Shown piece by piece: positions 5,676 to 49,659 of a stretch of DNA of 64,000 bases. The position numbers and the translations under genes are program-made. This stretch comes from an uncultured Verrucomicrobiaceae bacterium (lineage in GTDB: Bacteria > Verrucomicrobiota > Verrucomicrobiia > Methylacidiphilales > CAYYVW01), in the NCBI GenBank assembly GCA_964473925.1, contig CAYYVW010000002.1, positions 54,206 to 118,205 of the forward strand, written 5' to 3'. Below the pieces are notes generated by a model. That model was not told the origin of the DNA. It ran no database searches and worked only from the letters and a program-made list of their open reading frames with translations. The first letter of the stretch is position 1, and every line of letters begins with the position of its first letter.

Positions 5676-5786
5676 AAGAAAAAACAGAAAATCCTCCCCT
5701 TAAAAATAAACATTAAATCTTTGCCAATCAGGTAGACGAATCGAAGAAGCGAGGATAATGAGAAGAAATCATCCAAAAGGAAAAAT

Positions 5787-6269: not shown

Positions 6270-6304
6270 GCAGCAGGCGTCGAGCTCCCTACCGCACCGG
6301 GCAG

Positions 6305-21857: not shown

Positions 21858-21957
21858 GTCATCCCGAGCGCAGTCGAGGGATCTGGGTTCTGTAGGTGGC
21901 GCATCACCCAGCTGGCGAAGATTTCTCGACTTCGGCTTCGCCTCCGCTCGAAATGAC
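21858..21957. repeat. Second member of the GTCATCCCGAGC...GTCGAGGGATC inverted-repeat element family
   Basis: Arm 1 is gtcatcccgagcgcagtcgagggatc (21858-21883). Arm 2 is gatttctcgacttcggcttcgcctccgctcgaaatgac (21920-21957), an imperfect inverted copy carrying an insertion. Confidence 0.7.
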
Positions 21958-22030
21958 GTTTCTTCCAAGGCAAGCTACTAGTAACTGCACGCTTGAGTTT
22001 TGCTCGTGCGCTCGCTACTACTACGGCGCA

Positions 22031-23122
22031 ATGGAATGTATCTTGTCGCGAGAAGCGTTGGTCGAAGGACTTCAAAACAACGTCGTGAGCGGCCGGCCCA
22101 CTACGCTGCCGATTCTGGCCAATGCGCTGCTCCAGGCCAAGGACGGCAAGCTGGTGATTTCCACAACCGATTTGGATACGGGCCTGCGCACCAGCGTCGA
22201 GGCCAAGGTTGAGAAACCGGGCGCGACGACGCTCCCCGCTCGCCGCTTACTGGCGATTGTGCGCGAGCTGCCCGGAACCGAGCTGACGCTTAAGGTGGAT
22301 TCTAAAAACACCGCGACCATTCAGTCGGGCAATTCCGTCTTCAAAATCCTCGGCCTGCCGGCGGAAGATTTCCCGACGTTCCCCAAGCCCGAGGGCGGCC
22401 GCGTTTTCAAGCTCAAGCAGGCCACGCTGCGCGACATGTTCAAAAAAACGTCGTACGCGATTTCGATGGACGAGAGCCGGTACGTGCTCAACGGCGTTCT
22501 CCTTTCGCTGCACGATGGCAAGATGATGATGGTCGCGACCGACGGTCGGCGCCTGGCGCTGGTGGAGGAAGAGCTCGAGTTTCCCAAAAGCAGCGAGTGC
22601 GACGCGATCTTGCCGACCAAGGCGGTGCAGGAGCTGCTGCGCTCTCTCGAGGGCGACGGAACAGTGACGCTCACGCTGACTGATAGCCAAGCCTCGTTTG
22701 ATCTGGGCAGCGTTTATCTTGTCTCGAAATTGATCGAGGGTAACTATCCGAACTACCGCCAGGTCATACCCGCTGAAACCAAAGAGCGCGTGGCGCTCGA
22801 GCGCGAAACGTTGCACAACGCGGTGCGCCGCGTGGCGCTGCTCTCCAGCGATAAATCCAGCTCGGTCAAACTACACTTCACGCGCGGTCAGCTGGATATT
22901 ACTGCCAATACCCCGGAAGTCGGCGAAGCCAAAGAGAGCCTGCCCACCGCGTACAAGGGCAAGGACCTGACGATCGCGTTCAACCCAGAATTTTTAATGG
23001 ATCCGCTGCGCGCGCTGGATGTGGATGAGGTCTCTTTCGATCTGATTGATGAGACGAGCCCCGGCGTTCTGCGCACGGCCAAACCGTTTTTGTACGTGAT
23101 CATGCCGATGCGCACCGCGTAG
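22031..23122 (+). CDS. dnaN: DNA polymerase III beta sliding clamp
   Basis: MECILSREALVEGLQNNVVSGRPTTLPILANALLQAKDGKLVISTTDL...LNGVLL...MVATDGRRLA...YPNYRQVIP...FLYVIMPMR. Start trimmed to the ATG at 22031. Confidence 0.9.
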   Translation: MECILSREALVEGLQNNVVSGRPTTLPILANALLQAKDGKLVISTTDLDTGLRTSVEAKVEKPGATTLPARRLLAIVRELPGTELTLKVDSKNTATIQSGNSVFKILGLPAEDFPTFPKPEGGRVFKLKQATLRDMFKKTSYAISMDESRYVLNGVLLSLHDGKMMMVATDGRRLALVEEELEFPKSSECDAILPTKAVQELLRSLEGDGTVTLTLTDSQASFDLGSVYLVSKLIEGNYPNYRQVIPAETKERVALERETLHNAVRRVALLSSDKSSSVKLHFTRGQLDITANTPEVGEAKESLPTAYKGKDLTIAFNPEFLMDPLRALDVDEVSFDLIDETSPGVLRTAKPFLYVIMPMRTA

Positions 23123-23123
23123 C

Positions 23124-24281
23124 GTGGGTGACGTGACGCCCGCCTCCACGCATCGTTCCGAGCCACTGCGCGAACTAGTTCTGCGGCTGCGCGCGTTCCG
23201 GTGTCATCCCACGCTCGAGCTCGCGCTGTCGCCGGGCCGGACGCTGCTTGTCGGAAGCAACGGCTGCGGCAAGACATCGATCCTGGAGGCGTTGTATCTC
23301 GTGGGCCGCCTCCGCTCGTTTCGGACGCAGCAACCGCGCGAACTGCTTTCGTGGGGCGCGGACGCGCTGTACGTCGAGGCTCGACTGGACCAGGGGTCGC
23401 CGCTGGGGCCCGAAGCGTTGGCATATATTTGGAAAGACGGCGCGCGCCGGTTGGAGCACAACGGCTCGTCCGAACCGAGCGCGGCCGCATTTTGGGGCCG
23501 CCTGCCCGTCGTCCTTTTTTCATCCGCGGATCGGTTGTTAGTCGCGGGCCCCGCAGCGATTCGACGGCGGTGGATAGACGCTCTCCTGGCGCTGCGGGAT
23601 CCCGGCTACTTGCTTCTGGCGCGGCGCTACCAGCGGGCTCTCTCGCAGCGCAACGCGACGTTGCGCGCTCGCACGCTCGACACGCGGCTCCTCAGCGCCA
23701 TCAGCGAACAGCTCAATGCATTAGGAAGGGAAGTGACGGCAACACGCGCAGCGCTTTTGCCGCAGATTCAACAGACGTTGCGCGCGCAGCTGCAGGCGCT
23801 GGGCGGACCGAACCCGGCGTCGGCTGAGACTGCGAGCCGCTTGGAAACTATTTATAAGCAAGGGAACTCCGCCGACGCTTCATCCGTCCACGGGCGCGCG
23901 CTATTGGAAAGAGAGCGCCGGATGGGGGCGACGCTCACCGGGCCGCATCGGGATGAGTGGGCGCTTTTGTGGGACGGCAAGCCGCTGGCGCGGTTTGGAT
24001 CGGAAGGGGAACAGCGGCTGGCGGCACTCGCGCTGCGCTTGGCCGAGGCGACGCTCATTGAGCGGGCGCGCGGGTGCTGGCCCGTGCTCTTGCTCGACGA
24101 CGTGCTGGCGCCGCTCGATGCGGTGCGGCGGGAGCGCTTTCTGGCGCAGATCCCGGCTGCGGCGATCAGCCTCTTTGCCGCGCCGACGCTTTCAGGAGAA
24201 GATTCGGACGGGCTCGCAGCGCCGGCACGCATCTACAGCGTTGAGCCGGGTCAGGTAAGGGAGATTTCGCAGGGCGCCTAG
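23124..24281 (+). CDS. recF: DNA replication and repair protein RecF
   Basis: The GTG start lies 2 nt after the dnaN stop. Walker A GSNGCGKTSILEA; ...SGEQRLAALALRLAE...LLLDDV. Confidence 0.9.
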   Translation: MGDVTPASTHRSEPLRELVLRLRAFRCHPTLELALSPGRTLLVGSNGCGKTSILEALYLVGRLRSFRTQQPRELLSWGADALYVEARLDQGSPLGPEALAYIWKDGARRLEHNGSSEPSAAAFWGRLPVVLFSSADRLLVAGPAAIRRRWIDALLALRDPGYLLLARRYQRALSQRNATLRARTLDTRLLSAISEQLNALGREVTATRAALLPQIQQTLRAQLQALGGPNPASAETASRLETIYKQGNSADASSVHGRALLERERRMGATLTGPHRDEWALLWDGKPLARFGSEGEQRLAALALRLAEATLIERARGCWPVLLLDDVLAPLDAVRRERFLAQIPAAAISLFAAPTLSGEDSDGLAAPARIYSVEPGQVREISQGA

Positions 24282-24863
24282 CGTCCACCGCGCTCGAGCT
24301 GGCGGCGCCGCTGCCGCTCCTTGCGATTCTGAACGGTCGCCACCACCCCAAAAGCCGCCGCATCACGAGCGGCAGAGGTGACAGGGCCGGCAACGCGGGC
24401 GACGGCGCCCCCAACCCCGCGGAATACAGCAGCAGCAGCTCTAACGAAAGGCATAGGTAATTTCCCGGGGTGTAAAATAGGTCTCCAACGAGAAAGTAAT
24501 ACGGGTGCGGGTGTTTGTCATATTAATTTTTATCTTTTTTTAAGATATGGGCTGGGCTGGGCAAAAGGCCCGAGGGGGCAGGCTTCGGCATAAAGGCATC
24601 CCGCAATGAACCACAGCCGAGAACAGCAGGAGACTGCTCGGCCGCCTTCAAGGAAGCCAAAACATATGTAACGCATTTATAATGAGCTATAAACAAAAAA
24701 CACGCGCTGTATTTAGATTGCTTTTCTTTTGAAACACACTAAAAAGAAATACAGCGAAACACAGAAAGTCCTAAAATAAATAGGCCGCCAGCCGAACGCT
24801 ACATCCCACGGGACCTCTTCTCGAGATCCCGCACTTAAAAAACCAAAAGAAAGGGACACCGTC

Positions 24864-25184
24864 ATGATGGCACGAGGCGTAATCAAATGGTTCGACAACC
24901 GCAAGGGATTCGGCTTCATCGCTCAGGAGGGGGGGTCGGATATTTTTGTCCACTACACCTCTCTGGCAGGGGCGGGCTACAAAACGCTCGATGAAGGAGA
25001 CTTGGTCCAATACGAGCTACAGCAGACAGGCAAAGGGCCGAAGGCGACGAACGTCGTCCGCGTTGCCCAAGCGCTGGAAGCAGCTCAACGCCAGCAGGAT
25101 GGCGATAATGTAGAAAGCTCGCGTGCCCGCACTCCCGCCGCCGCTGCGCCTGTGCTGGAAGAGTTGTCCGCCGAATCTGCCTAG
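24864..25184 (+). CDS. Cold-shock protein (CspA family) with an Ala/Glu-rich C-terminal extension
   Basis: GVIKWFDNRKGFGFIAQEGGSDIFVHYTSL contains the RNP1/RNP2 motifs. It is preceded by a long A/T-rich leader with a TATAAT hexamer at 24678-24683. Confidence 0.9.
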   Translation: MMARGVIKWFDNRKGFGFIAQEGGSDIFVHYTSLAGAGYKTLDEGDLVQYELQQTGKGPKATNVVRVAQALEAAQRQQDGDNVESSRARTPAAAAPVLEELSAESA

Positions 25185-25405
25185 GCCCGCGTCTCATTTA
25201 GGTGCCTGTCTCCCTGGCCGCATTCGGTCAGGGCGGGCTGCTTAGAATGCGGAAAGAGGAGGCGCGGCTTAGGGCACAACATTCCCTTGCGGACCACAAG
25301 CGGCTTGCGGTAAGTTCCCCGTCCCTCAGAGTTCGCTGGCTGCCCGGGCCAGCGCTCCGCGCCGCCTTGAAAAGGGTGGAGAGGCCCACCCGGCAGATGC
25401 TTTTT

Positions 25406-25477
25406 TCCGGAGTAGCTCAGTGGTAGAGCGGTCGGCTGTTAACCGATTGGTCGTAGGTTCGAGCCCTACCTCCGGAG
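25406..25477 (+). tRNA. tRNA-Asn (anticodon GTT)
   Basis: Hand-folded cloverleaf: acceptor tccggag/ctccgga, anticodon loop ct-GTT-aa, T arm gtagg-ttcgagc-cctac. Confidence 0.9.
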
Positions 25478-25502
25478 CGTTGACGCCACTAATACTACGT
25501 CA

Positions 25503-27578
25503 TCAAGCCTCATCCAAGATGGCTCGCATGGCCTTGAGCAAGGCTCTCGCTGTATAAGGTTTCCTCAGAAAGTGTTTAAGGCTGACCCCAGACGTCTTGT
25601 TCGTACTGCCGTTGGCGTGCAGGCCGCTTGCCGCGATGATTTTGATCCGCGGATTTATTTTTGTCAGGGCGCGAATAACGGACGCGCCATCCATGATCGG
25701 CATCGCCATGTCGGTCAGAACCGCGGCGATTTCGTTCTTGTGCTCCAGGTAAATGGCCACGGCCTCCGCGCCATCGGTGGCGGTCAAAACTCGGTAGCCG
25801 AATTCCTCCAGGGTCTGGCGGGTGATGGTAATGATGGGGATTTCGTCATCGATCACCAGAATCGTCTCGCCGTTTCCACGCAGCAGGCCAACTTCCGGCG
25901 TCGCCTCGCTTTGTCCTTTGCCGGCAGCTTCCATTACGGGCAGATACACTCGGAAGGTCGTGCCTTTGCCCGGTTCGCTGTAAACATTGATGATCCCCTC
26001 ATGACTCTTCACGATGGCCATGACCGTCGACAGACCAAGGCCGGTGCCTTTGTTGAGCTCTTTGGTGGTGAAGAACGGCTCGAAGATTTTGTCGAGCAGG
26101 TCCGGCGGGATGCCCGTTCCAGAATCGGTCACGCAGATCTTGATGTAACGCCCTACTTTGGCCTGGATATTCATCGCGACGTACTGCGCATCCAACGTGC
26201 AGTTTTCAACGCTGATGGTTAAAGTGCCGCCGTTGGGCATCGCATCGCGGGCATTGACGCAAAGATTCAGCAGTATCTGATGGAGCTGCGTGGGGTCACC
26301 CAAAACCGTCCATAGGTCATTGGGAATGGAGAACCGCAGCTGGATGTCTTTGGGGAAGGTGTCCTTGATAATGCTTTCGAGATCCTTCATCAAATGCTTG
26401 GGCTGCACTTCGATTCGCTCGCCGTCGACGCCGCGGCCAAACGAGAGTACCTGCCGCACGATGTCGGCGCCCCGTTTCGCGCTGACTTCGATGGTTTCCA
26501 AAATGCTCTTTGACTGCGGATCGGTGGTTTTGGCCTGGAGCATCTCGATCGACATCATGATGGGGGCCAGGATGTTGTTTAGGTCGTGAGCAATGCCGCC
26601 GGCCAACCGGCCAATACTTTCCATGCGCTGCGCGCGCAGAAACTGATGCTCGAGTTTTTGGCGTTCGGTCAGATCGAGCACGAAACACACGCCTTCGTCC
26701 GGGCTGTCCTCGAAAGCCGCTAGGCCCAGAAGGATTGGCACGCGCGAGCCGTCTTTGCAGATGAATTCCTTCTCATACGGTAAGCCGGTGCCGCTCGCGG
26801 CGATTTCTTGCAGGGCTTTGCGGTCGAGTCCGGCGTATTCCAGCGGCGTCATCGCCACCCAATTGAGGCGCTTTGCTTCCAGATCCTCGCGACTGTAGCG
26901 CACGAGGCGCAGGAAGGCATCGTTGGCCTCGGTAATGTCACCCTGGGTGTTCCAAAACATCACGCCCTGCACGTTGGAGTTCACTAGTCGGCGGAAGCGC
27001 GCTTCGCTTCGCTTGCGTTCGGTGATATCGCGGATATTGCACTGGATGAGCCGCTGCTGGTCCACGAGATACGCGTTGCTGATGAACTCGACCTCGACGC
27101 GCACGCCATCCTTTGTCTCCAGGGCCAGCGCTTCGTAGCGAATGCGGTCGGCGTGCTGCAATTCCGCGAAAGCGATTTTGGAAGCCGCTACGCCTTTGAA
27201 CGGCCCGATTTCCCACAGTTTTTTCCCCAGGAATTCTTCCTCCGAATAGCCAAGCAAGTCTTTCATGAACGGGTTGGCGTCCACCACCTGCCCGGTCTTG
27301 GCGTCGAGAATCAGAATGCCGTCCTGCGCCGTTTCGAACAATCGTCTGTAACATAGCTCAGACGCGAGAATCGCCTCAACGGTCCTGGCCTCCGCCTGCT
27401 GCGTCCGGGTATTGGCTTGATCGGTCCGCGCCTCCGCCTCCTTAACGCGCGGGTCTTGCCGAGGCCGGCCGCCATTCTGGCCGTTCTTTATCTCGACTAC
27501 ATCAAGGGCGACGGCTTTACCTGGGGCCATGGCCAGCGACGGCGGTCCCTTTGGGATTAAGGAGGTTTTGAATTTCAT
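25503..27578 (-). CDS. Hybrid sensor histidine kinase (PAS-PAS-HisKA-HATPase-REC)
   Basis: H-box [11 protein letters not shown]; N/G boxes [11 protein letters not shown] and DSGTGIP...GTGLGLS. The C-terminal receiver has ILVIDDE...[12 protein letters not shown]. Start trimmed to the ATG at 27578. Confidence 0.9.
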
Positions 27579-27813
27579 GGGGGATCCTCTCCACAGAGAA
27601 ACTCTGTGATGAATATGGGTGGCATCCCATGGATCGTCCCCGACGTGTTGCCCCTTCAACAATTACAACAGTTACAGACAGAGGGAATAGGTATTTAGAG
27701 AATAGGCTGGGCTGGAATCCGAGTGTAACACGCGTTCCACCTTTAGCAATAGCTGCGTTAATAGCTGTTAGAGAGCCGACATAAGCCCTTCCAGGTGAAT
27801 AGGAAGAGATCGA

Positions 27814-27879
27814 AGCCGCACTCCAAAATCCACAATCTCCTGGTAATGCCGGGTTCGTAATGTGGCCACCAAGTGGAGC
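27814..27879. repeat. Left copy of a 66-bp direct repeat bracketing the metal cassette
   Basis: 60 of 66 positions match 29784-29849 in the same orientation. The 36-bp core taatgccgggttcgtaatgtggccaccaagtggagc (27844-27879) is identical. Confidence 0.9.
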
Positions 27880-27938
27880 TTTGCAAACCGGGACACAGCT
27901 AAAAATTCTTAAAGAAACTTCGGCTAGGAATTCCGTAT

Positions 27939-27967
27939 TTGACAATATACCCCCAGTGGGTATATTG
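27939..27967 (+). promoter_or_regulatory. Sigma70-like promoter (TTGACA-N16-TATATT) overlapped by a 25-bp CsoR-type palindrome
   Basis: TTGACA at 27939-27944 and TATATT at 27961-27966. Palindrome caatataccc-ccagt-gggtatattg at 27943-27967 has 10-bp perfect arms with A/T-rich ends and a central C/G tract. Confidence 0.6.
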
Positions 27968-27971
27968 GCTT

Positions 27972-28613
27972 GTGAAAAGTTTATTCACTTCGATACTGGC
28001 GGTTATGCTTCTCTTCGATGGCGAAGCCTGGGCACAAGCCGTAACCGCTAAGGGAACTACGCAATGGCGTTCTTATCTTGCGCCTGAAATTCAGCAAACC
28101 ACCGCCGCTTATTCTTTCAGTCCCACTCAGTCCATTGGCATTACGGGGCTGCGAATTGATAAGGGCGATGCCGATGTCCACCGGCTCATTGGGCTCGTGG
28201 AGTATGCTCACTTGCTGAAGCGCTGGTACGGAGAGGATTATCAAGCGAATATCTATGCCGGAGCAGGAATTGGCGGCGGGGCAGGAGATTTTGACGGCAG
28301 CGAGCCCGCCGGCTCTGCTTTTTTGCAAGCGGACTGGGAAACGCGCCGTTGGTTCGCGATGGCCAGCCTGCACGATTACGTCGGCCAGAGCTTCAATCAT
28401 TTGGTGATGACCGGCCAAGTTGCGTGGGCTCCTTACAAGGCGGACTATCAGGATTTAGCCACGTGGTTTGTGCTACAAGCCGAGTACATCACCGAAACAG
28501 ACGCCCGCTTGCGGATCACGCCGATGCTTCGCTTTATGAAGGGAAATTATTTTGTCGAAGTGGGCAGCAGTCTAATGGGCGAGCCGCAATTGAATTTCCG
28601 AATTACTTTTTAA
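27972..28613 (+). CDS. Putative small outer-membrane beta-barrel protein
   Basis: A GTG at 27972 gives the signal peptide VKSLFTSILAVMLLFDGEAWA-QA. The body has alternating amphipathic stretches and a C-terminal ...NFRITF ending in Phe, as in OM barrels. The track ORF begins at a TTG at 27939, which I read as the -35 box. Confidence 0.55.
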   Translation: MKSLFTSILAVMLLFDGEAWAQAVTAKGTTQWRSYLAPEIQQTTAAYSFSPTQSIGITGLRIDKGDADVHRLIGLVEYAHLLKRWYGEDYQANIYAGAGIGGGAGDFDGSEPAGSAFLQADWETRRWFAMASLHDYVGQSFNHLVMTGQVAWAPYKADYQDLATWFVLQAEYITETDARLRITPMLRFMKGNYFVEVGSSLMGEPQLNFRITF

Positions 28614-28634
28614 CAACATCAATCACCATACTCT

Positions 28635-28979
28635 ATGAAAACACACATACGGCATTCCATCATCGCCGTCGGGCTTGCGCTCGCGCTTCTCACGACAGGT
28701 TGGGCGCAATCGAAACCTCAAACCATTCAAGTCTCTGTACAAGGAATGGTCTGTAACTTTTGCGCGGTCGGCATTGAAAAGTCGCTTCGCAAGGTCAATG
28801 GCGTTGACGGCATTTACATCAATCTCGACAAGCGGCTGGTGGCCGTCACGACCAAGCCCGGAGCCACTGTGACAACCGACCAAATTGCCAAGACGGTGAA
28901 GGATTCAGGTTTCAAAGTGGTAAAGATCGAAACTACAGACAAAGCACTCGATCAAATCAAGAAGGAGACAAACAAATGA
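28635..28979 (+). CDS. Periplasmic heavy-metal-associated (HMA) domain protein, MerP/CopZ-like
   Basis: Signal peptide ...LLTTGWA-QS, then VQGMVCNFCAVGIEKSL, the GMxCxxC metal-binding loop. Confidence 0.8.
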   Translation: MKTHIRHSIIAVGLALALLTTGWAQSKPQTIQVSVQGMVCNFCAVGIEKSLRKVNGVDGIYINLDKRLVAVTTKPGATVTTDQIAKTVKDSGFKVVKIETTDKALDQIKKETNK

Positions 28980-29356
28980 GCAAATCATCACAGCAAGGCG
29001 TTCTTTCGTGGTTTATTCTAATTAGCAGTTCCAGCACGCTTCTCTGCTGCGCCCTCCCGGCGCTTATGGTGGCGCTCGGGGCGGGGGCAGTCTTTGGTTC
29101 ATTTGTGGCGCAAGTTCCGGGCCTCATTTGGATTAGTGAGCACAAGACAGGCGTGTTCATTTTCGCAGGCGTCATGCTCACGCTTGGCGGCTTCGCCCGC
29201 TGGCAAGCAGCGCGCCGCCCATGCCCCACAGATCCCAAGCTTGCCCATGCCTGCCAAGCGAGCCGTGGTTGGTCAAAATGGATCTATTTTGCTTCGTTGT
29301 CCGCCTACGGGACGGGACTTTTTTTCGCCTATGTCGCGCCTCTACTTTTCGCTTAA
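28976..29356 (+). CDS. MerT-like small membrane protein with a vicinal Cys pair in the first helix
   Basis: Its ATG overlaps the upstream stop as ATGA. Cys24-Cys25 lie in STLLCCALPALMVALG, and a second pair, C83/C93 (RRPCPTDPKLAHAC), lies in a loop. This resembles the MerT arrangement (CC in TM1 plus a loop Cys pair). Confidence 0.6.
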   Translation: MSKSSQQGVLSWFILISSSSTLLCCALPALMVALGAGAVFGSFVAQVPGLIWISEHKTGVFIFAGVMLTLGGFARWQAARRPCPTDPKLAHACQASRGWSKWIYFASLSAYGTGLFFAYVAPLLFA

Positions 29357-29363
29357 ATAAATT

Positions 29364-29666
29364 ATGAAGAAACGCAACAGCTGCCCCCCTCCAACGGACA
29401 TTCATCCCGACCATGGCGCCGAGCATGCCCGCCTGAATCGCATCGTCGGTCAGATCGAAGGCATCCGCCGCATGATTGACGAACGGCGTTACTGCCCGGA
29501 AATCCTCGGGCAAGTGGCTGCCGCCCGTGCCGCGCTCCAAGGCTTAGCGGCGTCCCTTTTAGAGAGGCATTTGTCCCACTGTGTAAATAGCGCCATGTCT
29601 AAAGGGCAAGACACTAAAAAGGCGGTCAATGAAGTAGTAGAAATTTTTCGGAAGTATTCGGAATGA
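29364..29666 (+). CDS. csoR: CsoR-family metal-sensing repressor with the Cu(I)-type C-H-C ligand set
   Basis: LNRIVGQIEGIRRMIDERRYCPEILGQV...LERHLSHC. Cys44, His69 and Cys73 have the same 25/4 spacing as the CsoR C-H-C triad. Confidence 0.85.
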   Translation: MKKRNSCPPPTDIHPDHGAEHARLNRIVGQIEGIRRMIDERRYCPEILGQVAAARAALQGLAASLLERHLSHCVNSAMSKGQDTKKAVNEVVEIFRKYSE

Positions 29667-29783
29667 GGCACGCCACATCTCTTGGGTTAGCAGCTATAAC
29701 CAGCATGAATTATGGGCGAGCGAGGCAAAAACGATTGATTTCAAACGCTTCACACAAGATCAAAACTCTTTGGTACCCGCCTC

Positions 29784-29849
29784 AGCCGCACCACAGAACC
29801 CACAAGCTCCTGATAATGCCGGGTTCGTAATGTGGCCACCAAGTGGAGC
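29784..29849. repeat. Right copy of the 66-bp direct repeat
   Basis: See 27814-27879. It lies just past the stop codon of the minus-strand VOC gene and 118 nt after the csoR stop. Confidence 0.9.
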
Positions 29850-29877
29850 GGCAGCCTTTGATTCAGCGCAATCGCTA

Positions 29878-30282
29878 CTACTTTTTGCAGTTGAGCATCC
29901 ACTGAAAGCCAAAGCGGTCGACAAGCATGCCGAAATAGGCGCCCCAGAACATATCGGCCAGGGGCATGGTGACCTTGCCGCCATCGCTGAGCGCTGCAAA
30001 AAGCTTGTCGGTTTCGGCGACGGTTTCGGGGTGAACGCTGATGGAAACGCTGTCGCCCATTACCGGAACGCCCTGGCAGTTGTCCGAGGCCATGAGGCAG
30101 AAATCTCCCTGGGTCAGGCACGCGTGCATGATTTTGTCTTTGTCCGCCGGAGAAGCAGAGCCCGGGTCAGGCGCGTCGCCATAGGTCACCAACTCTAATT
30201 TGCCCCCGAAGCACTGCCTGTAAAAGCCCATCGCGTCGCGGCAATTCCCGTTGAAGAACAGATAGGGAACAAGCGGCTTCAT
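29878..30282 (-). CDS. VOC (glyoxalase/PhnB-like) family protein
   Basis: MKPLVPYLFFNGNCRDAMGFYRQCFGG...FWGAYFGMLVDRFGFQWML is typical of the PhnB/YjdN-like VOC subfamily. Confidence 0.75.
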   Translation of the reverse strand: MKPLVPYLFFNGNCRDAMGFYRQCFGGKLELVTYGDAPDPGSASPADKDKIMHACLTQGDFCLMASDNCQGVPVMGDSVSISVHPETVAETDKLFAALSDGGKVTMPLADMFWGAYFGMLVDRFGFQWMLNCKK

Positions 30283-32348: not shown

Positions 32349-33407
32349 ATGTTTTTTACAGGGCTTGGAACGGCAGCCCCTCCGCAGCGTTACACCCAAC
32401 TCGAATGCCTGGAGGCGATCCGAGCGTGCGGGCTCTGGCGACAATTGGCCCCGCGATCGCAGGAGCTGCTACAGAAAGTTTTCTCAGGCAAAAATGGAAT
32501 TGAGACGCGCCACCTGGCGATTACCGACTGGGAGAAGTTTTTCGTTCTGAGCCCCGATGTCCTGCAGGCTCGCTTTACAGAGCAAGCGCCAAAATTGGCG
32601 ACAGAAGCGGCGCAACGCGCGCTTGCCGCAGCGCGGCTTAAGCCAGAAGAAATCGATGCGGTGATTATCAGCACGTGCACGGGGTATCTTTGTCCGGGAC
32701 TGACAAGTTATGTGAGCGAGCGTTTGGGACTGCGGCCCGACGTTCACGCGCTGGACTTGGTGGGGCAGGGCTGCGGCGCCGCGATGCCAAACGTGCGGAC
32801 GGCGGAAGCGTTGTTGGCCGGGGGCCGAGCACGCCATGTTTTATCCGTTTGCGTCGAGGTGTGCAGCGCCGCGTTTTATTTGGATGACGACCCGGGCGTG
32901 CTCATCAGCGCATGTCTGTTTGGTGACGGAGCCGGAGCCGCGGTGCTTTCCGCCGAGCCGAATCAAAATTCGCGGCGCATCGAATGGAAAACAATGGAGA
33001 GCTTTTTAAGTCCGGAAGACCGTGATTGTTTGCGCTTCGAGCATCGCCACGGAATGCTGCGCAATATCCTGACCCGTGAGGTTCCAGTGCTGGCGGGCAA
33101 GCAGGTTAAAAAGATTTTGGAGCAAGCGCTCAAGGCCGCCGACTTAAAGCAGGCGGACATCACCGGCTGGATCTTTCATGCGGGCGGCCGCGAAGTGCTC
33201 GCCGCGCTGCAAAAATATGTCGGCGTTACCGAGGCAGATTTGCGCCTGAGCGCTTCGGTCCTGCGCGATTTCGGCAACGTGAGCAGCCCGTGCGTATTTT
33301 TTGTGCTCGAGCGCGCGCTCCAGCAACAGCAGCCCGGCGGTTGGTGGTGGCTCTCGTCCTTCGGGGCCGGGTTCAGCTGCTACGGGGCGTTATTGAAAGT
33401 CGATTAG
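32349..33407 (+). CDS. Type III polyketide synthase (chalcone/stilbene synthase superfamily)
   Basis: The Cys-His-Asn triad is in its canonical contexts: LVGQGCGAAM, WIFHAGGREVL, FGNVSSPCVFFVL. Confidence 0.9.
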   Translation: MFFTGLGTAAPPQRYTQLECLEAIRACGLWRQLAPRSQELLQKVFSGKNGIETRHLAITDWEKFFVLSPDVLQARFTEQAPKLATEAAQRALAAARLKPEEIDAVIISTCTGYLCPGLTSYVSERLGLRPDVHALDLVGQGCGAAMPNVRTAEALLAGGRARHVLSVCVEVCSAAFYLDDDPGVLISACLFGDGAGAAVLSAEPNQNSRRIEWKTMESFLSPEDRDCLRFEHRHGMLRNILTREVPVLAGKQVKKILEQALKAADLKQADITGWIFHAGGREVLAALQKYVGVTEADLRLSASVLRDFGNVSSPCVFFVLERALQQQQPGGWWWLSSFGAGFSCYGALLKVD

Positions 33408-33412
33408 AAGCC

Positions 33413-34117
33413 ATGCGCCGCATCGTTGAGCCGGAGCTCCTGGACGAATTGCAGCCCGCGGATTTGCGAGCGATCGGCTCTCGCGGAGATCTTCAACGGC
33501 TCAATGGAATCATGGGGCACGCGGCCATTCTTGCGCGCGCGCTACGGGGCTGCTTGCGCCTTGAAGCTTCTTCCTCGCGTCGCTTGCAATTGATGGAGCT
33601 GGGCGCAGGCGACGGCACGCTGCTTTTGAAAGTAGCGCAACAATGCTCGATGCGCGGATTGAGCGCCGACGTAATTTTGGTGGACCGCCAGAACTTGATT
33701 TCAGAACAAACGCAGCGGGCATTTGCCGCGCTCAACTGGTCTATTAAAATCATGACGGCCGATGCGCAGGAAGCGCTGGAGCGCGCACCTCAACGCGTCG
33801 ACGTAATTTGCGCGAATCTGTTTCTGCATCACTTTGCCGACGATGCGTTGCGCGCTCTTTTGCAGACAGCGGCGCAAAAAACGAATTTGTTTGTCGCGTG
33901 TGAACCGCGTCGATGCGTGCGGGGATTGGTAGCGGCGCGGTTCTTGGGACTGATCGGGTGCAACGCGATTACGCGGCATGACGCCCGGGTCAGCGTGCGG
34001 GCCGGATTCGCGGGGAAGGAACTCTCTGTTCTGTGGCCGGCCGCAGAGAGCTGGGAGCTGCACGAGCGCTCCGCCGGATTCTTCAGCCATTTTTTTAGCG
34101 CCACACGTCATGCGTAA
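33413..34117 (+). CDS. Class I SAM-dependent methyltransferase
   Basis: Motif I LMELGAGDGTLL. It starts 6 nt after the PKS stop, and its stop overlaps the next gene (ATGCGTAA). Start trimmed to the ATG at 33413. Confidence 0.8.
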   Translation: MRRIVEPELLDELQPADLRAIGSRGDLQRLNGIMGHAAILARALRGCLRLEASSSRRLQLMELGAGDGTLLLKVAQQCSMRGLSADVILVDRQNLISEQTQRAFAALNWSIKIMTADAQEALERAPQRVDVICANLFLHHFADDALRALLQTAAQKTNLFVACEPRRCVRGLVAARFLGLIGCNAITRHDARVSVRAGFAGKELSVLWPAAESWELHERSAGFFSHFFSATRHA

Positions 34118-35144
34118 GCCCATTACCGTCGTGGGGGGCGGACTCGCGGGACTGGCCCTCGGGATCGGCCTGCGTCAGCGAGAGGTTCCGGTCGTGCTCT
34201 GGGAAGCGGGGCGGTATCCGCGGCATCGCGTCTGCGGCGAGTTTATCAGCGGCCAAGGGCAAGAATCCTTGCGGCGGCTTGGGTTGCTTGAAATGGTGAA
34301 TCGCGCGCGCGCGCAGCAAGCGACCAGCGCCGCATTTTTCCTCGAGCAGAGAGCGTTTCCCAAGCGCGATCTGCCTGAGCCCGCCCTCTGCATTTCGCGT
34401 TTTATCTTGGATGAGCTGCTCGCGGGCGAATTCCAACGCTTGGGTGGAGAACTCCGCGCCGGACAACGTTGGGACGGAAAATATGGCGAAGGAATCGTCC
34501 GAGCGAGCGGGCGTCACCCGCGGCCAATCACCGAGGGCTGGAGGCTCTTCGGATTGAAAATCCATGCTAGCAACGTCCCGCTGAAGGCGGACTTGGAAGT
34601 TCATTTTACGCCGTCCGGATACGTCGGCCTTTGCCGCTTGGTGGACGGGAAGACGAACATCTGCGGCTTGTTCCGCAGCAAGACGACGGTACCCGATCTC
34701 GCGCAGCGTTACCGCGAATGGCTGAGCGGCCCGCCAGGCTCGAGGCTCAGCGCGCGGCTGAGCGCGGCGCAGCTGGACGAGGGGTCGCTTTGTTCGGTCG
34801 CGGGCCTTTCCCTTGCTCCCCAACGAGCGGTCGATCGACACGAGTGCTGCGTCGGCGATGCGCTCACGATGATTCCGCCGGTCACCGGCAACGGCATGTC
34901 GATGGCGTTTGAGTCGGCAGAGCTGGCAATCGCGCCGTTGGCGAAATTTAGCCGGGGCGAGATGACATGGGCGCAGGCGCAGCGCTCCATCGCGGCGCAG
35001 TGTGACGCTCGGTTTGCGCGGCGGTTGCAGTGGGCGGGGCGGCTGCAAACGATTTTGTTTCGGCCGCGTCTGCGCGCGGCGCTTTTATTCCTGGGGGCGC
35101 ATTCGCAGTGGCTGTGGCGCGCGTGCTTCCATCAAACGCGTTAA
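34110..35144 (+). CDS. FAD-dependent oxidoreductase/monooxygenase (geranylgeranyl-reductase-like fold)
   Basis: N-terminal Rossmann motif ITVVGGGLAGLALGIGL. It overlaps the methyltransferase gene by 8 nt. Confidence 0.8.
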   Translation: MRKPITVVGGGLAGLALGIGLRQREVPVVLWEAGRYPRHRVCGEFISGQGQESLRRLGLLEMVNRARAQQATSAAFFLEQRAFPKRDLPEPALCISRFILDELLAGEFQRLGGELRAGQRWDGKYGEGIVRASGRHPRPITEGWRLFGLKIHASNVPLKADLEVHFTPSGYVGLCRLVDGKTNICGLFRSKTTVPDLAQRYREWLSGPPGSRLSARLSAAQLDEGSLCSVAGLSLAPQRAVDRHECCVGDALTMIPPVTGNGMSMAFESAELAIAPLAKFSRGEMTWAQAQRSIAAQCDARFARRLQWAGRLQTILFRPRLRAALLFLGAHSQWLWRACFHQTR

Positions 35145-39811: not shown

Positions 39812-40810
39812 GTGAAAAAGAAATTTCTCAATCCATTTCTGTTAGGGGCCATAGCGCTTGGCGTGATCAGCGTATTTCTGGTCATGAAATATTTGGACGC
39901 GCACACGGCGGATCTCAAGCGGGCCAATGATGAGCGCATCGCGGCCCTGCGGCGCGAGTTTGAAGATAAGCTCAAATCCGGCGGCAACGTCGTCCTCGAC
40001 AAAAAGCCCGAGCGCCCGGTTGTCTACGCGAAGCAGCCCATCGCTGCCAACCAGCGCATCGAAGCCGTCCTCGTTGAAATCAAGCAAACGCCGAAGGAGC
40101 TCATCGCGAACGGATTACAGTCGGTTGAAGAAGTGGCCGGCAAGTTCGCTTCCAAGCCGATTGAAATTGGCGAGCCGCTGACCACCGGAAACGTAACGGC
40201 TGAAGCGCAGACCATGTCCCAGCGGCTGACGCCCGGCCTGCGCGCGGTCTCCCTTCCGGTGCTTTCGCAGGCGAACGTCTCGGGCGGCTTTATCGCCAGC
40301 GGCGACCGCGTTGACCTTCTCTTTACCTACCCCGAGCCCGGCGTGCCGGGGCTGCGGACCGTGACGGCGTTGCAAAATGTGCGAGTGCTGTGGGTCCCTG
40401 GAAGCCCGGTTGAAACCAAGCAGACGGCGGGGCTCGCGCCCGCGCAGGCGCAGATTTCCAGCGGCGGCGTCACGTTTGAAGTAACTCCTTCCGAGGCAGA
40501 AATTTTGACCAACATGACCACCATCCGCGGCGGCGTCTTCAGCGTCGTGTTGCGATCGAAGACGGATGAGTCGATGGTCCGCACGCCTGGTCAGCGCCAG
40601 TCCGAGTTCCTGGAAAATCCGGGCGCGGTGCAACGCAAGTCCGATCGGTCGCAGGCGCAGACCCGCGAATTTTTAAAGCAGCTGGAAGAGCGCCGCGCCC
40701 AAGCGCAGGCACAAGAAGCAGCTGCCAGCTCTACCAACGCCGCACCCGCGGTTGAGGCGGCGGCGCCTACTGCTCCTGCCTCTGCTCCGACCGGAGAATC
40801 TCCCCAATGA
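39812..40810 (+). CDS. cpaB: Flp/Tad pilus assembly protein CpaB/RcpC
   Basis: GTG start, N-terminal TM anchor, SAF-like segment ...PIAANQRIEAVLVEIK...KPIEIGEPLTTGNV, and the C-terminal RcpC-type domain. Confidence 0.85.
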   Translation: MKKKFLNPFLLGAIALGVISVFLVMKYLDAHTADLKRANDERIAALRREFEDKLKSGGNVVLDKKPERPVVYAKQPIAANQRIEAVLVEIKQTPKELIANGLQSVEEVAGKFASKPIEIGEPLTTGNVTAEAQTMSQRLTPGLRAVSLPVLSQANVSGGFIASGDRVDLLFTYPEPGVPGLRTVTALQNVRVLWVPGSPVETKQTAGLAPAQAQISSGGVTFEVTPSEAEILTNMTTIRGGVFSVVLRSKTDESMVRTPGQRQSEFLENPGAVQRKSDRSQAQTREFLKQLEERRAQAQAQEAAASSTNAAPAVEAAAPTAPASAPTGESPQ

Positions 40811-43476
40811 AAATAACTATACGATTGTGCAAACGTGAGCCAAAGGCCCGCGCCCGACAGTGGATCGCGGCCGGTTTGGTTGCCGGATTTGCGGGCCTTG
40901 TCGCGGTTGTGGGCTTGAGCGGGGCGCTTGCGCCTTCCGCACACGCTCAGGCCGATGCAGGTCCGGCTATCCGCACCGAGCATCTGGATATTGGCCTCAC
41001 CGAAACTAAAACGCTGACGTTCGATCACGCGGTGGAAGATTTTACTGTCTCCGCGCCGGCGTTCGTAAATGTGGATCGCGCGGAAGGCAGTCAATCGCAG
41101 CTGACAGTCAGCGGGTTGGTGCTTGGCAGCGCGAACGTGCGCGTGCGCGTCGGCGGGCAGACGATCGATTATCTAGTCACGGTCACGCCGCAACCGGAAC
41201 GCATTTACATCAACATCCCCGAGTCCAAGCGGCTGACGTTCGCCAAACCGGTGGACGATGTTGCTGCATCCAAGGCGGGAGTAGTGCGGATCGTCCAGCC
41301 GAACGACAACGTAGTTCTTTTAGAAGCGCTCGATGGCGGACAAGGCAATGCCAAGACGACGGTGACGGTTCAATCGGGCGGGCAGCTGTACCGGTACTTC
41401 GTTTCAACGCTGGAGAATCGCGGCGCGGACATGCTGGAAATCCAGAACGCATTTGCAGCCAAGGGATACAAAAATCTGGTTGTCGCGTTTGACCGGGATC
41501 AGGTGACGATCACTGGGTCGGTCCCCACGCAGGAAGAACTCGATGATGCCGTGCGGATCGTCAAGCAGTACACTCCGTACGTAATTGTCCGGGCGGCGCT
41601 CGGCACGCCGACGGTCAGCGGACAGTTCGAGCAGGAAGAAGCGTTTATCGTCAACAGCATCAAGCGCATCTCGGGCGTGCCGAAGCTGACGGTGGTGGTG
41701 CAGTTCCCGCCGCCGCAGGTGGTGGAATCTTTTGAAGAGCGCTTCCAGGGGGGTGATACTTTTAATGCAGGCGACACGGTGATTGGACAGTCGGGGGTGA
41801 CAACGACTTCCAGCGGCCGGTTTGATTCGCCGCGCGACGACGAAGGCAACAACCGTCCGCCGCCAAGGCCGCGGGCGGGGACCGAGCGTCGCCGCGCGAC
41901 GACGATCAACCGGACAGTGCCGCAAAAGATTTTTTTGTATGGTGAGCTCGAAGACGATTTGCAGGAAGCCCGCGTGCTGCGCGTGGCGCGGACGTTTTGC
42001 CCGTACGTGGTCTCGTTCCTGCAGGTGAAAGACCCCATCCAGTTACGCGTTCGCCTTTCGTTCATCGAAGTGGACCTCACCCGCGGCCGCGAGATGGGCG
42101 TGCTCTGGTTTAACTCGAACTCTGGAACTGATCCGGTAACCGGTCTGCCCGTTTTTTCCGGCCCCAATGTTTCGCTGGATAATTTGAGCACCAGCTACTC
42201 GAATTTGGCGTCGGGCTCATTCGGTTCGCAGCTCTTGAGCAACCTGACGTACGGCCTGACGATGGATTGGTCGGCGACCTTGCGCTTTACTGAGTCGCGC
42301 GGGATTACCAAGACGGTGCAGTCGGCGACGCTCTTTTTGCTCAACGGCCAGCCGGGGACCTATCAAGACGGCGGTAACGTGCCCGTTGTGATTGGCTTTA
42401 CCTCGGGCGGTCCGGGATCTCCACCCGTGCCAGTGGTGGGCCAGCAGGAAGTGGGCATTACCGTCCTCATCCAACCGCTGACGGCCGAGCGCGGCCAGCA
42501 GGCGGCGGTGACGGGCGGGGCGCGGTCGGATCTGGTGGTCAATTTCCCTAACAGTTTGAGCAACACCAACCTCGGAGAGGTCGCGTCGCTGGGCAAGTAC
42601 ATGAACTTGCTGACGGCTCCTTACAACGGCCAGATCGACGAGAGCGTCAAATACGTCGGCGAGAACGGGCTGATCGGCATGAACGTGCGCACGCAGATTG
42701 CCGCGCCCGCCGGGAATGTGCTAGTCGCAGGGCAAGAGACCTCTTCGTTTAGCGTACGCAACGTCAATACGCGCGCGTTCGTCAACAACGGCCAATCCGT
42801 CGTTGTGTCGGGCTTGAATGACAAATCCCGCCGGATCTCTTCCAATGAGATTCCGTGGGTGAGCCGCATTCCAATTTTGGGTTACCTCTTCAAAAATCCG
42901 TCACGCAGCGAACGCGACCGGGAAATTTTGCTGGTGGTCTCTCCCGAGATTGTTCGGATGAAGGGCCCGCAGAGCGGATTTACACCTAAGCCAACCCTGC
43001 CCGAAACGCAGGAGCAAATGACCGAGCAAGGACCCGATGGCGTCGTGCCGGTGGCTTCAGGGGTCGAGCGGTATGAGCCGCCGCGGCCCAAGGCGCGTCC
43101 TTCCAAGAGGACCAAGACCGTCGCGAGCGCTTCTACTCGCCGCAAATCGACGACGGCTGCTCCCGCACTGCGTTCCGGGGTGGAGCCGACGGCCACGATT
43201 ACTTTACCTGCTCCGGAAGGATCCACTGAGCCAGCGCCGACAATTGCGCCGATCGCTATCGATCGTGCTCCCGTGCGCCCGCGCCCACCCGAGCCCGAGC
43301 CCGAGCCCGAGCCCGCTGCCGCTCCTCCTGAACCGCAGGCCCCGCCCTCGGGAACGGTGATTGATGCGGCCGCCGCCGCGCCGCCTTCTTCTCCTGCTTC
43401 CAGCGCTCCAGCTGCAGACGCGAACCAGAACGGGGCCGCGGCGGATGCGCCGGACCCTGCTGGAACGCTGCCATGA
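40807..43476 (+). CDS. cpaC: Tad secretin CpaC/RcpA, unusually long (889 aa) with a Pro/Ala-rich C-terminal tail
   Basis: It overlaps cpaB as ATGA. Two pilus-N-type repeats, a BON-like segment (VTITGSVPTQEELDDAVRIV), and a secretin core ending ...REILLVVSPEIVRM, followed by ~190 low-complexity residues. Confidence 0.85.
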   Translation: MKITIRLCKREPKARARQWIAAGLVAGFAGLVAVVGLSGALAPSAHAQADAGPAIRTEHLDIGLTETKTLTFDHAVEDFTVSAPAFVNVDRAEGSQSQLTVSGLVLGSANVRVRVGGQTIDYLVTVTPQPERIYINIPESKRLTFAKPVDDVAASKAGVVRIVQPNDNVVLLEALDGGQGNAKTTVTVQSGGQLYRYFVSTLENRGADMLEIQNAFAAKGYKNLVVAFDRDQVTITGSVPTQEELDDAVRIVKQYTPYVIVRAALGTPTVSGQFEQEEAFIVNSIKRISGVPKLTVVVQFPPPQVVESFEERFQGGDTFNAGDTVIGQSGVTTTSSGRFDSPRDDEGNNRPPPRPRAGTERRRATTINRTVPQKIFLYGELEDDLQEARVLRVARTFCPYVVSFLQVKDPIQLRVRLSFIEVDLTRGREMGVLWFNSNSGTDPVTGLPVFSGPNVSLDNLSTSYSNLASGSFGSQLLSNLTYGLTMDWSATLRFTESRGITKTVQSATLFLLNGQPGTYQDGGNVPVVIGFTSGGPGSPPVPVVGQQEVGITVLIQPLTAERGQQAAVTGGARSDLVVNFPNSLSNTNLGEVASLGKYMNLLTAPYNGQIDESVKYVGENGLIGMNVRTQIAAPAGNVLVAGQETSSFSVRNVNTRAFVNNGQSVVVSGLNDKSRRISSNEIPWVSRIPILGYLFKNPSRSERDREILLVVSPEIVRMKGPQSGFTPKPTLPETQEQMTEQGPDGVVPVASGVERYEPPRPKARPSKRTKTVASASTRRKSTTAAPALRSGVEPTATITLPAPEGSTEPAPTIAPIAIDRAPVRPRPPEPEPEPEPAAAPPEPQAPPSGTVIDAAAAAPPSSPASSAPAADANQNGAAADAPDPAGTLP
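43291..43314. repeat. Hexanucleotide microsatellite (GAGCCC)x4 in the secretin tail
   Basis: Read directly. It encodes EPEPEPEP. Confidence 0.9.
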
Positions 43477-44720: not shown

Positions 44721-44884
44721 TCAAACGCGGATGGTCTTGTTGGATAAGAAGCAATTTGTGTATTAGATTAGATGAGAACAGGGAGAGGGGCAGGCGCAGA
44801 CCGACAGGCGCGCTTGGCTATTTTCCAACGCCGCTTTTTGCCGGGAGTCTGGGCTAGGCCGACTCACGGCTTGCGATATTTTTT

Positions 44885-46426: not shown

Positions 46427-46440
46427 ACTCTAAACCGCAT

Positions 46441-47421: not shown

Positions 47422-47445
47422 AACCTAACCCATTCATTTTTTTCC

Positions 47446-48390: not shown

Positions 48391-48401
48391 AGAGGTCTTT
48401 T

Positions 48402-48998
48402 ATGTACAAACTGATTCGCCGCAAAAGTAAGAACGCTGCGGCGCCGCTGCGGGCAGGGACGCGGCGGAGGAACCAGGCGCAGACCACGGTCGAGTTCGCG
48501 CTGATCGTCTGGCCATTTCTGCTTTTGCTTTTCGCAACCATTGATTACGCGCAGCTTTATTTCTACGACTCCTCACTGCGCCATGCGCTGCGCGAGGCAG
48601 GGCGGTTTGCCACCACGGGCAACGTGATGCGGACCAATTTCGTTCTCTCCAACGGGCCGTTGCAAAGCAGTTACGAGGCCAACAAGCCAATTTCACGGAT
48701 GGAAAGCATTCGGCGCATCTTTCAGACCAATTGCCTCGTGAACACGCCGATTACTAATATTGTTGTTGAGAGTTGGCCCGGGCTTGCGGAAACGGGGACC
48801 GAAGCAGCCCCCAATAAAGGGCCTGGAGACGCGGACGATAATGTGCGCATTAAAGTGAGCGCCGAAGTGCCGATGATTACGCGGCTTTTTTTTACGAATA
48901 CCAAGTATAAGACAACGGTTACATCTGTGTTTCGCAATGAGCCGTCGCGCAATTTTTTGAACACCATTACAACCAACTACTATGGAGCGGAGCCTTAG
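48402..48998 (+). CDS. tadE: TadE-like pseudopilin 1
   Basis: N-terminus ...RRNQAQTTVEFALIVWPFLLLLFATIDYAQ is the TadE signature (xxVEFALxxP). Confidence 0.8.
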   Translation: MYKLIRRKSKNAAAPLRAGTRRRNQAQTTVEFALIVWPFLLLLFATIDYAQLYFYDSSLRHALREAGRFATTGNVMRTNFVLSNGPLQSSYEANKPISRMESIRRIFQTNCLVNTPITNIVVESWPGLAETGTEAAPNKGPGDADDNVRIKVSAEVPMITRLFFTNTKYKTTVTSVFRNEPSRNFLNTITTNYYGAEP

Positions 48999-49001
48999 GC
49001 C

Positions 49002-49613: not shown

Positions 49614-49659
49614 CATGTTACAACAGGGCCCAAAATAACTTTTAACGAACGGATTCTTT

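Follow-up and report, generated by a model that had tools for sequence, protein, structure and literature searches.

Two 66-bp direct repeats bracket a complete, CsoR-controlled four-gene metal cassette in the stretch of Verrucomicrobiota DNA analysed here (64 kb, referred to as the window), and we see an even chance that these repeats are the recombination scar of a Campbell-type insertion of a 1970-bp circle carrying the cassette. The enclosed genes form an uncharacterised but recurrent and conserved module, in which a CsoR repressor controls a pore of the outer membrane, an HMA protein of the periplasm and a MerT-like protein of the inner membrane. Coordinates of the repeats, the cassette and the host genes on both sides are collected in Table 1.

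Table 1. Features of the repeat-bracketed cassette and its host flanks (window coordinates).
Feature	Coordinates	Strand	Basis or remark
Left host flank: PAS-PAS-HisKA-HATPase-REC hybrid histidine kinase	25503..27578	-	best relatives in Verrucomicrobiota
Left copy (copy 1) of the 66-bp direct repeat	27814..27879	.	host-side on the left, cassette-side on the right; identical core 27844-27879
Cassette promoter TTGACA-16-TATATT, sigma-70, 11/12 matches	27939..27966	+	promoter search, sequence
Inverted repeat ATATACCC-CCAGT-GGGTATAT, candidate CsoR-type operator	27945-27965		overlaps the promoter; sequence
Outer-membrane 12-strand beta-barrel, ~213 aa	27972..28613	+	AF2 model, fold comparison, alignment
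Periplasmic HMA protein, CopZ/MerP-like, signal peptide	28635..28979	+	Pfam HMA 1.1e-9
126-aa membrane protein, MerT-like	28976..29356	+	sequence features, homologs
CsoR/RicR-family metal-sensing repressor	29364..29666	+	Pfam Trns_repr_metal 1.6e-25
Right copy (copy 2) of the 66-bp direct repeat	29784..29849	.	identical core 29814-29849
Right host flank: VOC/PhnB-like protein	29878..30282	-	same strand as the kinase

A repeat search reproduced every number that an earlier note had given for the repeat pair: the two copies lie in the same orientation with a start-to-start spacing of 1970 bp, they agree at 60/66 positions (91%), and their right 36 nt, the 36-mer TAATGCCGGGTTCGTAATGTGGCCACCAAGTGGAGC, are identical in both. 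The homology between the copies ends at the 66-bp limits as given in the table. The 36-mer occurs exactly twice in the window, with 0 occurrences expected from 100 shuffles; neither a third copy of it at up to 3 mismatches nor weaker copies of the repeat (blastn-short, nhmmer) were detected in the 64 kb, and the pair is the only long repeat family there, the rest being short chance-like matches. Both copies are intergenic and non-coding. Open frames exist on both strands, but a protein-coding repeat was discarded because these frames have no common start, diverge beyond the repeat and overlap real genes in antisense. The placement of the copies was also described correctly before: copy 1 ends 59 nt ahead of the -35 hexamer at 27939, where about 60 bp had been estimated, copy 2 adjoins the VOC gene and ends 28 nt from its stop codon, and exactly the barrel, HMA, MerT-like and CsoR genes are enclosed.

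The repeats thus delimited bracket one autonomous unit, which runs from promoter and operator through to the regulator, plus 117 nt. The inverted repeat overlapping the promoter is presumably the operator, judged by its resemblance to known CsoR sites, and a related inverted repeat, ATACTCCC-A-TGGGGTAT, is found at the same position in a locus elsewhere (L085). The barrel probably starts with GTG at 27972, its N-terminus being fixed by alignment with three distant homologs; no family model in Pfam or NCBIfam matches the protein, and its all-beta AF2 model (pLDDT 74, pTM 0.70) finds its best PDB folds among porins of the KdgM/NanC type. The matches of the HMA protein to the NCBIfam models for CopZ and MerP stay below their cut-offs, as does that of the repressor to RicR (4.5e-20). 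The MerT-like protein, for which Pfam and NCBIfam likewise hold no matching model, carries two cysteine pairs, CC in its first helix and CPx..C close to the C-terminus, and has 384 homologs, one of which is named MerT in UniRef. In unrelated genomes the module recurs: L085 has all four genes in this order behind an operator of this kind, and three-gene or rearranged versions of the module occur in L082-L084 and L086/L087; none of these related modules in L082-L087 is flanked by repeats, and their neighbourhoods are unrelated. A CsoR operator within the 66-bp repeat itself was dismissed, as by inspection CCAC-CAA-GTGG is only loosely like an operator of the form ATACCC-N5-GGGTAT.

In its composition the cassette stands apart from its surroundings, in line with the earlier observation that the enclosed genes are less G+C-rich than the flanking kinase gene. 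The G+C content of 27880-29783 is 0.523 compared with 0.603 for the window, a value within the lowest 0.3% among windows of 1904 nt, and the interval is the lowest-G+C 1.9 kb of the 64 kb; GC3 is 0.58-0.60 in the cassette versus 0.73 in the kinase, 0.76 in VOC and 0.77 in ADH. This anomaly is real but modest, because two ordinary neighbours, DUF1428 (0.57) and LysE (0.585), have an equally low GC3. The cassette is oriented antisense between two co-directional genes of the minus strand, VOC and kinase, and its deletion in silico together with one repeat leaves, by the coordinates, a plain 329-nt spacer between these genes. The named relatives of the MerT-like protein are Bdellovibrio species, whereas those closest to the kinase belong to Verrucomicrobiota, a contrast that favours insertion. 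The locus adjoins dnaN-recF, genes by which the origin region is usually marked, and 2.3 kb to its left there is a tRNA-Asn gene.

All 6 differences between the copies fall into the left 30 of the 66 positions (29784-29813 in copy 2; P = 0.0065 under random placement), so that left arms identical at 24/30 positions, i.e., 20% diverged, stand beside 36 identical nt. This clustering fits what is expected of one crossover between two similar, non-identical parental sites, and it is not expected from the uniform decay of a duplication that was once identical. Selective constraint or gene conversion acting on the right half could be an alternative source of the same pattern.

In the mechanism proposed here, a circular DNA of ~1970 bp, made up of one repeat segment and the CsoR-controlled barrel/HMA/MerT-like/CsoR module, would integrate by one reciprocal crossover at a similar, non-identical 66-bp segment located in the spacer between VOC and kinase. 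The crossover would occur inside the 36 bp common to both partners, and copy 1 would therefore keep the left arm of the host and copy 2 the left arm of the incoming DNA; the two 66-bp repeats would then be hybrid junction sites resembling attL and attR. The reaction may be catalysed by a site-specific recombinase that is encoded elsewhere and acts in trans, or by RecA, for which 36 bp is about the minimal length of homologous exchange, and the same repeats would permit a rare and precise loss of the cassette. We infer both the integration event itself and its catalyst from the arrangement of the locus. An attL/attR pair or a duplicated site had been suggested in the earlier note, and this reading remains the best fit to the bracketing of a complete module, its composition, its antisense orientation and the mismatch pattern; what did not turn up for it is a recombinase, an empty site, a second instance or any sign of excision.

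The absence of an integrase from the locus, as previously remarked, extends to the whole window, since none of the 52 ORFs scanned across it has an integrase, transposase or other recombinase domain, and no relaxase or ICE remnant is present in the 64 kb. Overlap with a tRNA or with the end of a gene, often seen in classical att sites, is absent from the repeat. A tRNA-derived att site was rejected, as ARAGORN and Rfam place no tRNA at the repeats and the repeat is unrelated to tRNA-Asn, the 3' end of which has no second copy in the window. An attC site was rejected as well, as both copies, together with their 10-nt flanks, are free of RYYYAAC and GTTRRRY motifs on both strands, and the only exact inverted repeat shared by both copies is the 8-bp palindrome GTGGCCAC within the core. 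Insertion of the XerCD/dif type (IMEX) would require, in the vicinity of the replication terminus, a 28-bp site in which two inverted 11-bp arms flank a 6-bp spacer; the repeat contains no inverted 11-bp arms, and the locus lies beside dnaN-recF.

An empty site was sought through the relatives of both host genes. Among 79 loci with kinase relatives of at most 73% amino acid identity there was no synteny and no homolog of the repeat, a copy of which was also missing from the 1.3 Mb that these related loci comprise; the search via VOC, the best non-self match of which is 70% identical, found no empty site either. Exact scans with a 24-mer of the core gave 0 matches in genome and metagenome contig collections, a second 20-mer of the core gave 0 in metagenome contigs and a 20-mer gave 0 in viral contigs, and the region 27700-29950 has no match among plasmid and phage records (blastn, distant mode). 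All of the tested proteins (10/10) fall into singleton 90% clusters; an empty or a second occupied site was not found because the lineage is without a close relative in public collections. Exact-protein look-ups led to no more than two Logan contigs, both short and both from the same strain. One of them (L002), an independent assembly of another sample, joins kinase, copy 1 and cassette at 100% identity; the other (L001) corresponds to 27844-29843 of the window with a 30-nt terminal overlap. L001 was not accepted as a circle, given that a 36-bp repeat in a k=31 graph, a missing right-hand branch and patchy coverage would produce the same contig, and coverage in the Logan samples is indeed patchy, VOC, DUF1428, ADH and kinase not being assembled whole.

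These contigs bear on the explanation that we find hardly credible, namely an assembly artefact in which a separate small replicon, or DNA of another strain, would have been joined to the chromosome at a common short sequence. The window is part of a metagenome-assembled genome, its right-hand junction from copy 2 to VOC is seen in the window only, and L001 closes on itself. Against this, L002, from another sample, continues unbranched from the kinase across copy 1 to the cassette, the start of L001 at the first shared k-mer implies, by reasoning, that the left flank was attached in that sample too, and metagenome assemblers work with reads and large k-mers that exceed a repeat of 36-66 bp in length. 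Unlikely, in our judgement, is also that the 66-mer is a short repeat dispersed throughout the genome, REP- or MITE-like, two copies of which are found by chance in intergenic regions next to each other, where they would provide at most homology for recombination and not a site dedicated to the cassette. The intergenic, non-coding nature of the unit would suit such an element, as would the imperfect hairpin that can be drawn on the minus strand with its base at the repeat ends and 19 pairs kept in both copies. Nevertheless, there are just two copies among 64 kb and ~50 intergenic regions and none in the 1.3 Mb from related loci, the two are neighbours with the same orientation whose positions coincide with the limits of the compositional outlier, and the hairpin does not exceed shuffled sequence in stability (z -0.55 to -1.36), there being neither a stable hairpin nor terminal inverted repeats.

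The remaining explanation, to which we attach a rather low probability, holds that the repeat has a function in cis and is there in two copies, either as protein-binding DNA sites, for example a pair that loops or insulates the operon, or as an RNA element of the minus strand (a small RNA or part of a UTR) situated ahead of the kinase and within the VOC 3' UTR, and that selection keeps the right 36 nt identical. Such selection would account for 36 identical nt beside 30 nt with 20% divergence, and the core contains the palindrome mentioned above. The pairing of cuuggu with accagg, which had been pointed out before, does exist, but on both strands the fold is no better than that of shuffled sequence, with z-scores of about -0.5 to -1.4 for the copies on either strand, and the minimum-energy structures of the two copies differ. 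In the drawable hairpin 3/6 differences affect predicted pairs, and in each case a one-sided change preserves the pairing; an alignment fold of the two sequences is not significant and contains no compensatory double changes. The Rfam scan proposed in the earlier note yielded no match for the repeats at the gathering threshold (Rfam 15), and under relaxed thresholds, up to E <= 10, it added nothing for the repeat beyond two chance-level matches outside its core (E 0.12 and 2.7), with none at copy 2. With no promoter-like or terminator-like site in or beside either copy, and with the sequence absent from the related loci and collections searched, the structured-RNA or regulatory module once offered as an alternative found no support in these two sequences. 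The insertion scar might be extended to an active, integrase-free, non-integron cassette, in which a recombinase encoded at another place in Verrucomicrobiota genomes would recognise the 36-bp core, excise the 1970-bp unit as a circle and re-insert it, as a lineage-specific exchange system for small regulated operons; this we hold to be very improbable.

If the insertion scar is the true reading, the locus shows cleanly, and on a very small scale, how a complete self-regulated metal operon drops into a chromosome, leaving short hybrid repeats that make the gain reversible, and it would be useful for reading islets without mobility genes in metagenome-assembled genomes. The bracketed cassette is an ordinary kind of feature and opens no new question by itself; the cargo, a recurrent uncharacterised CsoR-controlled set, may be more interesting than the repeats.

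Among known systems, the tRNA-targeting genomic islands share with this locus a compositionally distinct cargo between direct repeats, and a tRNA-Asn gene is near, whereas the repeat is unrelated to tRNA-Asn or any other tRNA. Integron cassettes and CALINs (attC clusters that have no integrase) resemble it in the small cargo, in similar sites of ~60 bp that point the same way, in the lack of a nearby integrase and in a mobile form that would be a circle with one site; they differ in that the repeat here has neither RYYYAAC/GTTRRRY cores nor a strong imperfect palindrome, and in that the usual single promoterless ORF is replaced here by four genes under a promoter and a repressor of their own. 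CIMEs (cis-mobilizable elements) are likewise segments of cargo only between direct repeats, without recombinase or transfer gene, and here the barrel, HMA protein, membrane protein and CsoR are all that is enclosed, by repeats with an identical core and a diverged arm as in hybrid att sites, whose att function is putative. Unlike described CIMEs, the cassette is far smaller (~1.9 kb), has no ICE or IME remnant and ends in a repeat without a tRNA or protein gene end; a related ICE or IME integrase for the same att site is absent within the 64 kb, and the core is absent from genome, metagenome and viral collections. Compared with Campbell-type integration, perfect identity extends here over just 36 bp, near the lower limit for RecA, but the insert lies between two directly oriented copies of the common segment and the differences are partitioned to one side of the crossover, as in that process.

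Both copies of the 66-bp repeat lie in direct orientation with a start-to-start distance of 1970 bp, and a repeat search revealed that they are identical at 60 of 66 positions, with a core of 36 identical nucleotides at their right-hand end. The earlier note had described exactly these values and had named the barrel, HMA, MerT-like and CsoR genes as the only genes enclosed; its observation of the repeat is correct, and its initial interpretation as an attL/attR-like pair or a regulatory or structured-RNA module was reasonable. With up to three mismatches allowed, the window still contains just two occurrences of the core 36-mer, against 0 in 100 shuffles. Within the 64 kb neither weaker copies (blastn-short and an nhmmer profile of both copies) nor a comparable repeat (window-wide repeat search) were detected. 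In gapped alignments the similarity ends at the repeat boundaries, and all six mismatches fall within the left 30 positions (P = 0.0065 under random placement).

Coordinates of the repeat copies, the cassette, its flanking genes and the cargo module in different loci
Feature	Location	Strand	Remarks
Hybrid kinase	25503-27578	-	PAS-PAS-HisKA-HATPase-REC; left flank
Repeat copy 1	27814-27879		core 27844-27879
Promoter	27939-27966	+	TTGACA-16-TATATT; near-consensus
Barrel protein	start probably GTG at 27972	+	~213 aa
HMA protein		+	HMA domain and signal peptide
Membrane protein		+	126 aa; paired cysteines
CsoR		+	CsoR/RicR-family repressor
Repeat copy 2	29784-29849		core 29814-29849
VOC/PhnB-like protein	29878-30282	-	right flank
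DUF1428, zinc alcohol dehydrogenase (ADH), cupin		-	right flank
Cargo module, window	27939-29666
Cargo module, L085	555-2240
Cargo module, L084	2225-3509
Cargo module, L086	4979-6369
Cargo module, L082	9277-11513

Enclosed between the copies are an upstream spacer of 59 nt, noticed before as a distance of about 60 bp, promoter and operator, the four genes and a 117-nt tail; what the repeats enclose is thus a whole unit with its own regulation. An inverted repeat, ATATACCC-CCAGT-GGGTATAT, overlaps the promoter, and we take it to be a CsoR operator from its resemblance to known CsoR sites. Within 27961-27975, the probable GTG start of the barrel gene, fixed by homolog alignment, lies only ~6 nt past the -10 hexamer, so that the operon would be transcribed with no leader or almost none. 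The barrel protein matched no Pfam or NCBIfam family, and it is predicted to form a 12-strand beta-barrel in an AlphaFold model (pLDDT 74, pTM 0.70), with KdgM/NanC-type porins as best PDB matches. Only three non-self homologs were found among 5.8 billion proteins in a word-indexed search, and tblastn identified further copies in L085, L084, L086 and L082, loci carrying versions of the cassette. For the membrane protein 384 unannotated homologs exist, one of them named MerT by UniRef. With its predicted outer-membrane barrel, periplasmic HMA protein, MerT-like inner-membrane protein and CsoR, the cargo forms a recurrent but uncharacterised metal module under CsoR control; its arrangement suggests a CsoR-controlled metal route across the whole envelope, and it is worth studying in its own right. 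A second predicted metal-uptake system in the window (3840-7372) is a zinc/manganese-type transporter made up of an ABC-3 permease and a periplasmic binding protein resembling ZnuA.

In L085, an ENA metagenome contig (G+C 0.49), the four genes are ordered as in the cassette, with amino acid identities of 30, 40, 60, and 47%, respectively. The leader is likewise short (~10 nt) and the -10 region is overlapped by the palindrome ATACTCCC-A-TGGGGTAT; in the module, the -10 is covered by a putative ATAC(C/T)CCC...GGGTAT operator. L084 and L086/L087 contain the barrel, HMA and membrane protein genes, and L082/L083 a rearranged version with CsoR first. The neighbourhoods of the L082-L087 modules are unrelated to each other and to the window, and these loci show neither flanking direct repeats nor similarity to the 66-mer.

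The enclosed 1904 nt have a G+C content of 0.523 compared with 0.603 for the window, which is within the lowest 0.3% of same-size windows. The GC3 of the four cassette genes is 0.58-0.60 versus 0.73 for the kinase, bearing out the earlier impression of a lower G+C content than in the kinase gene, 0.76 for VOC and 0.77 for ADH; because DUF1428 (0.57) and LysE (0.585) are equally low, this anomaly is real but modest. Both flanking genes run on the strand opposite to the cassette, and after removal of cassette and one repeat the coordinates leave VOC and kinase co-directional with a 329-nt spacer. Farther left of the kinase follow tRNA-Asn, a cold-shock gene, recF and dnaN (21896-25478); upstream of dnaN lies an opposite-strand ABC transporter gene, not dnaA, and a stretch of G+C 0.47 (24400-25000) is the csp upstream region. 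The best relatives of the kinase are encoded in Verrucomicrobiota MAGs (Methylacidiphilales and similar; 63-73% amino acid identity), and 1.3 Mb of these loci contained no synteny and no repeat homolog. The best non-self homolog of VOC is 70% identical, and since its best named relatives are from Nitrosotenuis and Legionella (63-67% amino acid identity), not Verrucomicrobiota, the right flank may also be of mixed history. At 90% identity each of the 10 proteins tested from the window forms a singleton cluster, and their only known occurrences are in one 268-kb NCBI contig and two Logan samples. No exact match of the core was found in GTDB (one genome per species), JGI metagenomes or IMG/VR, and a blastn search of plasmid and phage records with the cassette region was negative. 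Elsewhere in the window, an adjacent type III polyketide synthase, methyltransferase and FAD-dependent monooxygenase (32349-35144; ORF calls overlap) look like a small alkylresorcinol-like biosynthetic cluster. A Tad/Flp-type pilus locus (39812-51852) comprises RcpC, secretin, ParA-like/REC, T2SSE, two T2SSF, two TadE and a VWA protein; it is followed by another, oppositely oriented cluster (57516-60996) with one T2SSF and two T2SSE ATPases.

We give about an even chance to the repeats being a recombination scar of cassette insertion; a part of the probability is assigned neither to this reading nor to its three rivals. Membership in a dispersed-repeat family is unlikely, as neither blastn-short nor nhmmer found a further copy in the 64 kb. 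A duplicated functional cis-element appears quite unlikely: the structured-RNA alternative raised earlier found no counterpart in Rfam, neither at gathering thresholds nor, around each of the two copies, with the E-value limit relaxed to 10, and with fold z-scores of -0.55 to -1.36 for both strands of both copies the repeat folds no better than shuffled sequence. The copies prefer different structures; a 19-pair consensus hairpin is possible on the minus strand, with pairing kept at the three variable paired positions, but all three changes are one-sided and two sequences offer no statistical power. Misassembly is highly improbable, given that the Logan contig L002 (SRR13608705; window 27414-29509) joins the kinase, via copy 1, to the cassette. 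The other Logan contig, L001 (SRR13608702; 2000 nt, window 27844-29843), begins with the shared core's first base and stops after 30 nt of the second core, so that its ends overlap by k-1 = 30. This gives it a circular look, but a k=31 de Bruijn graph yields the identical contig if the core-to-VOC branch is missing. With its start on the first k-mer common to both copies, L001 implies an attached left flank in its sample. In the Logan samples csp, cupin and PKS were assembled whole and VOC, DUF1428, ADH and kinase were not, and coverage is therefore patchy. A circle or tandem form would fit L001, but a missing low-coverage branch explains it equally well, and we do not take it as evidence for such a form.

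Several known element types were rejected. The repeat is not tRNA-derived, it lacks attC core motifs, and it has no dif-like architecture, since the palindrome GTGGCCAC is the only exact inverted repeat common to both copies. A protein-coding repeat was likewise dismissed, the reading frames having no common start and diverging beyond the repeat. A scan of 52 ORFs from the whole window revealed no integrase, transposase or resolvase domain, in line with the integrase-free cassette reported before.

For the recombination scar, a single reciprocal crossover is the most economical account. A circular DNA of 1970 bp, consisting of one site and the module, would have met a similar site within the VOC-kinase spacer, and exchange inside the shared 36 bp would have left the host arm in copy 1 and the incoming arm in copy 2. 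This would explain the one-sided mismatches by the retained arms, and by the single crossover the direct orientation, the exact fit of the repeats around an autonomous module that occurs as a unit in other loci, and the contrast in strand and composition with the flanks. Judged from the two copies, the distribution of differences argues that they predate the insertion, because later divergence of 20% in 30 nt should also have touched the adjacent 36 nt; alternatively, these 36 nt may be under constraint or homogenised via gene conversion. The proposed crossover could have been catalyzed by RecA acting on the 36-bp identity or by a recombinase encoded outside the window and acting in trans. As direct repeats around an acquired islet without mobility genes, the feature belongs to a well-known kind, and if a trans-acting recombinase was involved, the cassette would be a miniature analogue of a cis-mobilizable element (CIME; defined in PMC5704250).
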